From: Escherichia coli | GTDB taxonomy: Bacteria; Pseudomonadota; Gammaproteobacteria; Enterobacterales; Enterobacteriaceae | Strand: one strand, 5' to 3' | Length of the DNA stretch: 64,000 bases | Assembly (NCBI RefSeq): GCF_022846255.1 | Contig: NZ_AP025682.1 | Part shown: piece after piece, positions 30,214-62,125 of the stretch | Layout of the letters: each line of letters opens with the position of its first letter | Numbering within the stretch: the stretch's first letter is position 1 | Notes under the pieces: model-generated | The model's input: the letters and a program-made list of their open reading frames with translations, nothing else | Database searches by the model: none | What the model was told of the DNA's origin: nothing | Program-made: the position numbers and the translations under genes

Positions 30214-30891
<678 letters not shown>

Positions 30892-30929
30892 ATCCATCGC
30901 TGATGGTGCAGAACTTTAGTACACGATAA

Positions 30930-30965
30930 AAGCGGCTTCCTGACAGGAGGCCGTTTTGTTTTGTA
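30930..30965 (+). terminator. dps terminator hairpin plus T-tract
   Basis: ggcttcct...aggaggcc imperfect stem followed by ttttgttttg. Confidence 0.55.
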
Positions 30966-31107
30966 GCCCGCCTCAACGCACTTATTTAGTGCATCCATCT
31001 GCTATCCCCAGCTGGTTAAGTAAATTTTTTGTATCCACATCATCACACAATCGTTACATAAAGATTGTTTTTTCATCATGTTTTACGCTAAATAATCACT
31101 GTGTTGA

Positions 31108-31240
31108 GTGCACAATTTTAGCGCACCAGTTTGGTGCCCCAGAATGGTGCATCTTCAGGGTATTGCCCTATAAATCGTGCATCACGTTTTTGCCGCATCT
31201 CGAAAAATCAATGAGTTGCAAAACTGGCACGATTTTTTCA
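31108..31240 (+). promoter_or_regulatory. glnH regulatory region: NtrC-type sites and sigma54 promoter
   Basis: gcaccagtttggtgc palindrome (about 31123..31137) and overlapping tgcaccattctgggg-like half-sites; TGGCAC-N5-TTTCA at about 31225..31240, about 55 nt upstream of the glnH ATG. Confidence 0.7.
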
Positions 31241-31279
31241 TATATGTGAATGTCACGCAGGGGATCGTCCCGTGGATAG

Positions 31280-32041
<762 letters not shown>

Positions 32042-32069
32042 TAACGCTGCGCCTGTAAAGCGCACTGGC

Positions 32070-32135
32070 AGTTCCCTCTCCCCGCCGGGGAGAGGATTAG
32101 GGTGAAGGGCGCAAACCCGCTCCGGGGCCATTAAT
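32070..32135 (+). other. intercistronic GC-rich stem-loop(s) between glnH and glnP
   Basis: ccctctcccc-gcc-ggggagagg perfect 9-10 bp stem followed by a gggtgaagggcg...ccgctccggggcc segment. Confidence 0.6.
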
Positions 32136-32179
32136 TACCCTGAATTTGATTATTTACACCACGGTAACAGGAACAACAT

Positions 32180-32839
32180 ATGCAGTTTGACTGGAGTGCC
32201 ATCTGGCCTGCCATTCCGCTTCTGATTGAAGGTGCCAAAATGACCCTGTGGATTTCGGTCCTCGGTCTGGCTGGCGGTCTGGTGATCGGATTGTTGGCAG
32301 GTTTTGCACGCACCTTCGGTGGTTGGATAGCCAACCACGTCGCGCTGGTCTTTATTGAAGTGATCCGCGGCACACCTATCGTCGTCCAGGTGATGTTTAT
32401 CTATTTCGCCCTGCCGATGGCGTTTAACGATTTACGCATCGACCCGTTTACTGCGGCGGTGGTCACCATCATGATCAACTCCGGCGCGTACATTGCGGAA
32501 ATCACGCGTGGTGCGGTGCTGTCTATTCACAAAGGTTTTCGTGAAGCAGGACTGGCGCTCGGTCTTTCACGTTGGGAAACCATTCGCTACGTCATTTTAC
32601 CGCTGGCACTGCGTCGTATGCTGCCGCCGCTGGGTAACCAGTGGATCATCAGCATTAAAGACACTTCGCTGTTTATTGTTATCGGCGTGGCTGAGCTGAC
32701 CCGTCAGGGGCAAGAAATTATTGCCGGTAACTTCCGCGCCCTGGAGATCTGGAGCGCCGTGGCGGTGTTCTATCTGATTATTACCCTGGTGCTGAGCTTT
32801 ATTCTGCGTCGTCTGGAAAGAAGGATGAAAATCCTGTGA
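32180..32839 (+). CDS. glnP: glutamine ABC transporter permease GlnP (219 aa)
   Basis: ORF track; polar amino-acid permease. Confidence 0.95.
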
Positions 32840-33558
32840 TTGAATTTAAAAACGTCTCCAAGCATTTTGGTCCAACCCAGGTGCTGCACAATATCGATTT
32901 GAACATTGCTCAGGGCGAAGTCGTGGTGATTATCGGGCCGTCCGGTTCCGGTAAATCGACCCTGCTGCGCTGCATCAACAAACTGGAAGAAATCACCTCC
33001 GGCGATCTGATTGTCGATGGCCTGAAGGTTAACGATCCGAAAGTTGATGAGCGCCTGATTCGCCAGGAAGCGGGTATGGTGTTCCAGCAGTTTTACCTCT
33101 TCCCGCATCTGACGGCGCTGGAAAACGTCATGTTTGGCCCGCTACGCGTGCGTGGCGCGAATAAAGAAGAGGCGGAAAAACTGGCGCGTGAGCTGCTGGC
33201 GAAAGTCGGTCTGGCAGAGCGTGCACATCACTACCCTTCCGAACTTTCTGGTGGTCAACAGCAGCGTGTGGCGATTGCCCGCGCGCTGGCGGTGAAGCCG
33301 AAAATGATGCTGTTTGATGAACCGACTTCCGCTCTTGACCCGGAACTGCGCCATGAAGTGCTGAAGGTTATGCAGGATCTGGCTGAAGAAGGGATGACGA
33401 TGGTGATCGTGACCCACGAAATCGGTTTTGCCGAGAAAGTAGCTTCGCGCCTGATCTTTATCGACAAAGGCCGGATTGCAGAAGATGGCGATCCGCAGGT
33501 GTTGATCAAGAACCCGCCGAGCCAGCGCTTGCAGGAATTTTTGCAGCACGTCTCTTAA
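32836..33558 (+). CDS. glnQ: glutamine ABC transporter ATPase GlnQ (240 aa), GTG start overlapping glnP stop
   Basis: ORF track; GPSGSGKST Walker A, LSGGQQQR signature. Confidence 0.95.
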
Positions 33559-41667: not shown

Positions 41668-41744
41668 GTAGGACGGATAAGGCGTTTACGCCGCATCCGG
41701 CAACAGATGCCTGATGCGACGCTACCGCGTCTTATCAGACCTAC
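41668..41744. repeat. BIME (two REP units, short linker), with a further partial REP about 20 nt downstream
   Basis: gtaggacggataaggcgtttacgccgcatccggca - acagat - gcctgatgcgacgctaccgcgtcttatcagacctac. Confidence 0.85.
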
Positions 41745-48149: not shown

Positions 48150-48377
48150 AACTACTCCGAACCGCCCCGACCGTTACCGGTGTAGTTTTCAGGGAGATAC
48201 TGAAAAGGAAAATGACAAAAACCACAATGTCATGAGGGAGCGGAGTGTAGCAGTTTTTGTGACGCAGCGCATAAATTATCCCTGTGACTGGCGTAGCTAA
48301 AATTCTTAGCCATACTGGACAACTCCCCTATGGAGTCATAATCTTAATCAATCATTTGATTAAGAATGGACTGTGCG

Positions 48378-60987: not shown

Positions 60988-61977
60988 TTAGCCACCAATG
61001 TACGATAAGTTTTGCGTAATACCGGTGTTATTTTGATGCAGGAAATGGGTCTGTTTTTTCTCCCGCAGCGCCGCTGAAATACGCGCTTCCAGCGCCTGTT
61101 GCTGGGTATCGTCTTCCAGCAGATCGCGCAGGTTAACGCCGCCTTCACCAAACAGGCAGAGATGGAGTTTACCAATGGAGGAAACGCGCAGGCGGTTGCA
61201 AGTGGCGCAGAAGTCTTTTTCATACGGCATGATAAGGCCAATCTCTCCGGCGTAATCCGGATGACAAAAGACTTGCGCGGGACCGTCGCTGCGTTGACGT
61301 AATTGGTGGATCCAGCCGCGACGCAGTAGCTCGTCACGCAGAACCTGACCAGAGATGTGATGCTTACGGAAGAGCTCGCTGCCCTCGCCCGTTTCCATCA
61401 ATTCGATGAAACGCAGCTGGATAGGGCGATGCTGGATCCAGTTCAGAAAGGTGTCGAGCTGATGATGATTAACATCACGCATCAGCACGGTATTGACTTT
61501 GACCTTCTCAAAACCGGCCTCAAATGCAGCATCGATTCCTGCCATGACCTGGTTGAATTTATCCTGCCCGGTAATGGCATGAAACTGGCGAGCGTCAAGG
61601 CTATCAACGCTGACGTTGATGCCAGTAAGTCCAGCATCGCGCCAGTTCGCCACATCGCGTTCCAGACGGTAACCATTGGTGGTGACCGCAATCTGGCGGA
61701 TAGCGTCGTTTTCCCGCACAGCGGCGATGATATCGGTAAAGTCGCGGCGTAAAGATGGCTCACCGCCCGTCAGACGGACTTTTTCGGTGCCAAGACTGGC
61801 GAAGGCGCGCGTAACCCGGCGAATTTCATCGACGGTAAGAAAGCCTTTATTGGTGACGCCGCTCGGTTTGTAGCCATCCGGCAGGCAGTAGGTGCAACGA
61901 AAGTTACACACATCGGTAATCGACAGGCGCAAGTAGTAAAACTTACGCGCAAATGCATCAGTCAGTTGTGAAGCCAT
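60988..61977 (-). CDS. moaA: GTP 3',8-cyclase MoaA (radical SAM, 329 aa)
   Basis: ORF track 60988..62058 trimmed to [31 protein letters not shown]; the longer ORF would read through the leader. Confidence 0.93.
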
Positions 61978-61984
61978 GTACACC

Positions 61985-62125
61985 TTTCCAGATACGGGAG
62001 GCGAAGTCATTTCTTCCTTCGCCCTGGTGGCAATCTTTACAAGCATTGTCACGGCCAAAGCACCGTATCAGTTGACCCAGGTGCAGAGGCTAGAGTGTTT
62101 AGTGGTTAAGCCGATACTAGCGTGT
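61985..62125 (-). ncRNA. Moco riboswitch (moaA 5' leader RNA)
   Basis: minus-strand sequence ...aaacactctagcctctgcacctgggtcaactgatacggtgctttggccgtgacaatgcttgtaaagattgccaccagggcgaaggaagaaatgacttcgcctcc... immediately upstream of the moaA ATG; boundaries approximate. Confidence 0.7.

Follow-up and report, generated by a model that had tools for sequence, protein, structure and literature searches.

The glnHp2 promoter region of the glutamine-uptake operon glnHPQ in an Escherichia coli genome, compared with K-12 and across the Enterobacterales

Since 1991 the glnHp2 promoter has served as a model of an IHF-assisted promoter that depends on NtrC and sigma-54, and it has been used in synthetic-biology enhancer work. 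Its dependence on phosphorylated NtrC (NtrC-P) is described by Mao et al. 2007 (PMC1865078) and its requirement for an IHF-induced bend by Huo et al. 2009 (PMC2709558), and reporter work ranks it as a weak promoter. It resembles glnAp2, which is likewise an NtrC-P-activated sigma-54 promoter with upstream dyads, located for glnAp2 at -108 and -140 (Mao 2007), and which also stands in tandem with an upstream sigma-70 promoter, CRP modulating both. The two differ in that the NtrC sites are separate at glnAp2 but overlap at glnHp2. Moreover, glnAp2 lacks an obvious IHF site and functions independently of IHF (Huo 2009), is stronger in reporter tests and possesses low-affinity 'governor' sites (Schumacher 2013). 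The Klebsiella nifH/nifU and Pseudomonas Pu promoters likewise require IHF to bend the DNA that separates enhancer from core promoter if looping is to be productive (Huo 2009), although they respond to other activators, NifA and XylR, and belong to other regulons.

In the window, by which we mean the whole 64,000-nucleotide stretch of E. coli DNA that was analysed, the open reading frames flanking the feature encode OmpX, RhtA, Dps, GlnH, GlnP, GlnQ and YbiO, a gene order that is backed by the RefSeq annotation of matching K-12 loci. The dps gene ends at 30891 and its terminator forms the upstream limit of the glnH control region. A 441-base segment covering the spacer between dps and glnH matches E. 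coli Nissle 1917 completely (100%) and occurs as a single copy flanked by dps and glnH in 5,421 of 5,426 complete E. coli genomes, and across the spacer the window is 99% identical to K-12. In E. coli IAL7255 (NZ_CM130730.1) the match stops at query position 176, corresponding to about 31055 in the window, next to an 'integrase core domain-containing protein'; apparently an insertion sequence sits in the region of the upstream promoter glnHp1 there, with the glnHp2 module undisturbed.

A sequence-only reading had proposed that the interval 31100-31245 carries the nitrogen-regulated promoter of glnHPQ. Within it just two substitutions separate K-12 from the window, at 31130 (A to T) and 31212 (G to T), and both fall at degenerate positions. 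They are the only differences from K-12 glnHp2 within the feature and touch no consensus position, and the dyad half-sites, the IHF consensus positions, the TGGCACGATTTTTTCA core and the leader are all identical. By its orthologous placement between dps and glnH and its near-identical sequence, the locus is identified as glnHp2 itself, and the promoter of this B2-type strain is expected to be functionally equivalent to that of K-12. The features are collected in Table 1.

Table 1. Coordinates in the window of the elements of the glnH control region and of the operon that it regulates.
Feature	Position	Strand	Remarks
dps intrinsic terminator	30929-30957	+	Terminator scan: 13-pair stem, then T run
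Distal NtrC-like palindrome CGCACTTATTTAGTGCA	30977-30993	.	Centre 30985: -267 (glnHp2), about -116 (glnHp1)
glnHp1 (sigma-70)	31029-31101	+	CRP site, likely hexamers, +1 at about 31101
CRP site of glnHp1	31029-31050	+	Centre -61.5; sequence and position from Mao 2007
Likely -35 TTGTTT and likely -10 TAAATA of glnHp1	31065-31070 and 31089-31094	+	Inferred from spacing and conservation
NtrC site 1 CGCACCAGTTTGGTGCC	31122-31138	.	Centre 31130: -122 from glnHp2 start
NtrC site 2 TGCCCCAGAATGGTGCA	31135-31151	.	Centre 31143: -109; overlaps site 1
Conserved GTGCA half-site	31177-31181	.	-75 to -71; alignment island across Enterobacteriaceae
IHF core AATCAATGAGTTG	31206-31218	+	Exact WATCAANNNNTTR match; -46 to -34
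Sigma-54 core promoter TGGCAC-GATTT-TTTCA	31225-31240	+	GG -26/-25, TC -14/-13
glnHp2 transcription start (+1)	31252	+	From both ends of the -289 to +63 fragment, Mao 2007
Stem-loop, 5' end of glnHp2 leader	31252-31277	+	GGGG/UCCC core, outer CACG/CGUG
glnH	31295-32041	+	ORF, RefSeq K-12 annotation; regulated operon
glnP	32180-32839	+	ORF, RefSeq K-12 annotation; regulated operon
glnQ	32836-33558	+	ORF, RefSeq K-12 annotation; regulated operon
glnHPQ operon, overall span	31295-33558	+	

The transcription start could be transferred directly from published work, since Mao et al. 2007 (PMC1865078) give both primers for a reporter spanning -289 to +63 of glnHp2. These map to 30963 and 31314 in the window, and each end yields +1 at 31252. 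The glnH ATG then lies at +44, the start falling 43 nt before it, in agreement with Bonocora 2015, where glnH is listed with a 'distance 44'. The core promoter TGGCACGATTTTTTCA at 31225-31240 is the sole match to TGGCAC-N5-TTKCW in the window. Its GG and its spacing conform to the sigma-54 consensus, in which GG and GC dinucleotides stand 10 bp apart, and its -12 dinucleotide is TC where the consensus has GC. The resulting TTTCA, rather than TTGCA, is that of the published glnH sequence, and the deviation has been kept across genera. From the C of this -12 element, at 31239, it is 13 nt to +1, in keeping with the roughly 11-13 nt expected between the -12 element and the start of a sigma-54 promoter. 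A TGGCAC-N5-TTTCA element with -24/-12 spacing is thus present as had been proposed, and the mapped start is compatible with it.

The sequence-only reading had also named palindromic GCACC-N5-GGTGC sites and these are present as two dyads. One is perfect (GCACCAGTTTGGTGC at 31123-31137, the core of site 1) but the second carries one mismatch (GCCCCAGAATGGTGC at 31136-31150, the core of site 2). They overlap, with their centres 13 bp apart, and relative to the NtrC consensus TGCACC-N5-GGTGCA they score 10/12 and 11/12, respectively. The substitution at 31130 (T in the window, A in K-12) lies in the spacer of site 1. Across the Enterobacteriaceae the half-sites of site 1 are kept and its spacer is free, while the GGTGCA half of site 2 constitutes the best-conserved distal block of the alignment described below. 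The distance of about 90 to 110 nt that had been proposed between the dyads and the sigma-54 element was roughly right: counted upstream from the T of TGGCAC, the dyad centres lie at 95 and 82 nt and the dyad starts at 102 and 89 nt. Claverie-Martin and Magasanik, in PNAS in 1991, are said to have footprinted NtrC sites at -122 and -109. In the window, where the values follow by arithmetic from the primers of Mao 2007, the two centres fall at these same positions and thereby provide the at least two dyads, about 100-140 bp upstream of the start, that are characteristic of an NtrC enhancer.

A further NtrC-like match, TGCACAATTTTAGCGCA at 31109-31125 (9/12, centre -135), was set aside, being within chance expectation (by a binomial estimate a 9/12 match arises in about one in eight 350-nt regions) and unconserved outside Escherichia. 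It sits 13 bp upstream of site 1 and, together with sites 1 and 2, makes up a 13-bp periodic series found in Escherichia only.

Between the enhancer and the sigma-54 core promoter, where an IHF-assisted promoter should carry it, lies an IHF core. The sequence-only account of the promoter architecture omitted this element, together with the overlap with the sigma-70 promoter glnHp1 that is considered below and the mismatch in the second dyad, and the motifs that it did name are all present. The second substitution relative to K-12, T for G at 31212, occupies an N position of the IHF consensus, and the core is kept in other genera, mostly as AAAACAA-N4-TTG. Binding of IHF at glnH was observed by GeF-seq and ChIP-qPCR (Kasho 2021, PMC8407004), with an amplicon equivalent to 31143-31248 in the window that spans the IHF core, and it lies under the high threshold of one genome-wide study (PMC8407004). 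Over the whole window the consensus WATCAANNNNTTR is matched nine times against 2.6 expected, a number reached in none of 100 shuffles, and one pair of matches overlaps on opposite strands at 48346-48361.

Evidence for in vivo occupancy by sigma-54, NtrC and IHF, and for rpoN dependence, derives from published studies. Several of these use older MG1655 numbering, which is offset here by about 777, as established from comparison with NC_000913.3 and from the published motif centre. A sigma-54 ChIP-seq peak and the motif CTGGCACGATTTTTTCA, identical in sequence to the window motif, are both centred at 847290 (about 31232 in the window), and the site is flagged as confirmed, with a PSSM score of 10.8 for the glnH motif (Bonocora 2015). 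Zhao 2010 lists the identical sequence as the known glnH promoter at -70 to -53 from the ATG, the window motif also starting at -70, and reports glnH expression to be 8.3-fold lower in an rpoN deletion. An NtrC ChIP-seq peak, described as 'direct binding', extends over 847261-847341, or about 31181-31261 (Brown 2014); the interval is 30-110 bp downstream of the dyads and within ChIP resolution. The gSELEX peaks of RpoN and NtrC are both located at 847362, about 31160 (Shimada 2021), and in Salmonella an orthologous motif, TGGCATGATTTTTTCATT, was found at glnH by sigma-54 ChIP-chip (Samuels 2013).

Sigma-54 promoters are open to cross-activation, for example by DctD250 in Salmonella (Samuels 2013), and an enhancer-binding protein other than NtrC might in principle activate glnHp2. 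We consider this very improbable, given dyads that agree with the NtrC consensus at 10/12 and 11/12 positions, NtrC peaks from both ChIP-seq and gSELEX that map here, and the consistent naming of NtrC in the literature (Mao 2007, Bonocora 2015, Samuels 2013). The proposal that NtrC and sigma-54 activate glnH is, rather, supported by the identity with K-12 glnHp2, by the geometry of the elements, and by the published occupancy and rpoN dependence.

Taken singly, the motifs are close to what chance would produce in 64 kb. Dyad matches with at most one mismatch number three against 2.62 expected, and there is one sigma-54-like match against 0.28 expected, such that neither scan reveals significant enrichment in the window. 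These figures are what could be cited for the view that the motifs are chance matches and that glnH is transcribed from a sigma-70 promoter only. Because single motifs lie near chance, a composite test and a phylogenetic test were employed. The composite was defined as a dyad and a sigma-54-like element sharing a strand, with the dyad 60-160 nt upstream. The window contains one such pair, and 300 dinucleotide-preserving shuffles yielded none.

For the phylogenetic test, 120 loci were collected, one genome per species, using a 14-residue GlnH coding peptide as the search anchor, and 350 nt preceding every start codon were analysed; with an anchor in coding sequence, the search did not presuppose a conserved promoter. 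Of the 75 Enterobacterales-type orthologues, 67 carry a sigma-54 element that matches at 9 or more of 11 positions, compared with 46 of 1500 shuffles, and in 61/75 an NtrC-like dyad accompanies this element, spaced from it as in E. coli, compared with 1/1500. Burkholderia, Rhizobium, Pseudomonas and others contributed 38 orthologues, none with the architecture, and it was likewise not found in the 350 nt upstream of the seven Pectobacteriaceae orthologues (Brenneria, Dickeya, Pectobacterium, Samsonia and Prodigiosinella). The chance explanation, contradicted by both tests as well as by the published sigma-54 and NtrC occupancy and the rpoN dependence, is already refuted and we give it essentially no credence.

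The five Yersinia loci carry a longer leader, with the sigma-54 motif 133, 210 or 275 nt before the ATG. In four of them NtrC-like dyads are retained at the same distance from the promoter as in E. coli; in the fifth (L005) none was detected. Retention of the dyad-promoter distance despite the longer leader argues that enhancer and promoter are under selection as one unit.

A finer picture was provided by a MAFFT alignment of 53 sequences, whose overall identity to the window is about 50% and which replaced an ungapped stacking anchored on the sigma-54 element that had blurred the distal sites. Conservation is restricted to islands that comprise the dyad half-sites, with free spacers, the IHF core, and the core promoter along with its spacer, and the sigma-54 core is near-invariant across the 53 aligned genera. 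In the Enterobacteriaceae, Erwiniaceae, Yersinia and Serratia the T of TTTCA is retained although it departs from the consensus; TTTCA is conserved in most Enterobacterales, and the consensus form TTGCA or TTGCT is present instead at eight loci from Rahnella, Rouxiella, Tatumella and Hafnia psychrotolerans. Conservation of this T points to selection for a weak, IHF-dependent promoter. More generally, the comparison shows that the module of overlapping dyads, IHF core, weak TTTCA and enhancer-promoter spacing is old within the Enterobacterales. The elements, their positions relative to the mapped start and their conservation are thus documented either here or in earlier papers.

The leader that follows the start may itself be structured. 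The stem-loop at its 5' end has a minimum free energy of -8.8 kcal/mol with z = -0.66, which is unexceptional alone. Its sequence is kept in the Enterobacteriaceae, and different complementary stems occur in Pantoea, Mixta and Erwinia (z to -3.9); per-sequence folding yielded no stem at that position in Yersinia, Rahnella or Tatumella. RNAalifold detected no consensus structure in the leader alignment, where the divergent stems are out of register, and the per-sequence folding lends only moderate support. The hairpin may be an mRNA-stabilising 5' element. A search of the dps-glnH spacer and leader against Rfam produced no match. Elsewhere in the window, matches above the gathering score were obtained for a Moco (molybdenum cofactor) riboswitch at 61965-62109 (-) and for the nucleoid-associated RNA naRNA4 at 41671-41741 (+).

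Upstream of glnHp2, a sigma-70 consensus scan over 30850-31350 revealed no strong promoter, a result that fits the published weak E-sigma-70 binding at glnHp1. Since no hexamers matched, glnHp1 was placed from its published CRP site at -61.5. The interval 31100-31245 opens almost exactly at the glnHp1 start, and the dyads fall at about +22 to +50 of its transcript.

Directly past the dps terminator, outside that interval and 145 bp upstream of site 1 between centres, lies a distal palindrome. It matches the NtrC consensus at 9/12 positions in E. coli and at 10-12/12 in most other Enterobacteriaceae, the distance to the sigma-54 motif downstream being about 240 nt. Nearly all Enterobacteriaceae genera, and Hafnia paralvei, preserve both half-sites (TGCAC and GTGCA), with variable spacer and flanks. 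A change in one half-site is not matched by a compensating change in its partner, and this favours a putative protein-binding site over an RNA hairpin. The palindrome is missing from the Erwiniaceae and Yersiniaceae, in which an additional NtrC-like site is often present 19-33 nt upstream of site 1 instead. For the conserved GTGCA at -75 no partner half is recognisable in the alignment; NtrC might bind it with low affinity as a half-site, or it might serve another factor. Neither the palindrome sequence nor GTGCA at -75 is mentioned in the literature searched, the scope of which excluded the primary 1991 paper and RegulonDB/EcoCyc.

This arrangement raises the question of whether the dyads act mainly as operators for glnHp1, such that NtrC could block or loop out that promoter under nitrogen limitation, a role that would be added to the enhancer function. 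At glnA, NtrC represses p1. The glnH promoter architecture is considered to resemble that of glnAp1/p2 (Schumacher 2013); moreover, the dyads (31122-31151) and the distal palindrome flank the glnHp1 core, and the palindrome is conserved. We nevertheless consider such a role possible rather than probable: NtrC repression of glnHp1 is not reported in the literature searched, the palindrome reaches just 9/12 in E. coli, and independent evidence already establishes the proximal dyads as an enhancer.

Together, these results make it almost certain that glnHp2 in the window is the sigma-54-dependent, NtrC-activated and IHF-assisted promoter of glnHPQ and that it operates in the steps that follow. 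We infer their order from the general NtrC/sigma-54 model. Nitrogen limitation would lead to phosphorylation of NtrC (background in Mao 2007, PMC1865078), and NtrC-P would bind to the overlapping dyads at -122 and -109 and oligomerise there. IHF bound at about -40 would bend the intervening DNA, bringing the NtrC oligomer into contact with the closed complex of sigma-54 RNA polymerase on TGGCAC-N5-TTTCA, and ATP hydrolysis by NtrC would then generate the open complex, with transcription proceeding from 31252. The T that replaces the consensus G in the -12 element would result in weak polymerase binding and, in turn, in reliance on the IHF bend.

The stretch is, then, the already known glnHp2, the NtrC/sigma-54/IHF promoter of the glutamine-uptake operon glnHPQ, and an ordinary feature; its value as a discovery is small and the gain is a confirmed annotation of the window. 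We also raise, tentatively and with more doubt than conviction, the idea that the glnH control region holds NtrC-related elements beyond the two textbook sites, namely the distal palindrome and the GTGCA at -75. If true, these elements could repress glnHp1 through a DNA loop, help NtrC to load cooperatively, or restrain glnHp2 in the manner of the 'governor' sites described for glnAp2.
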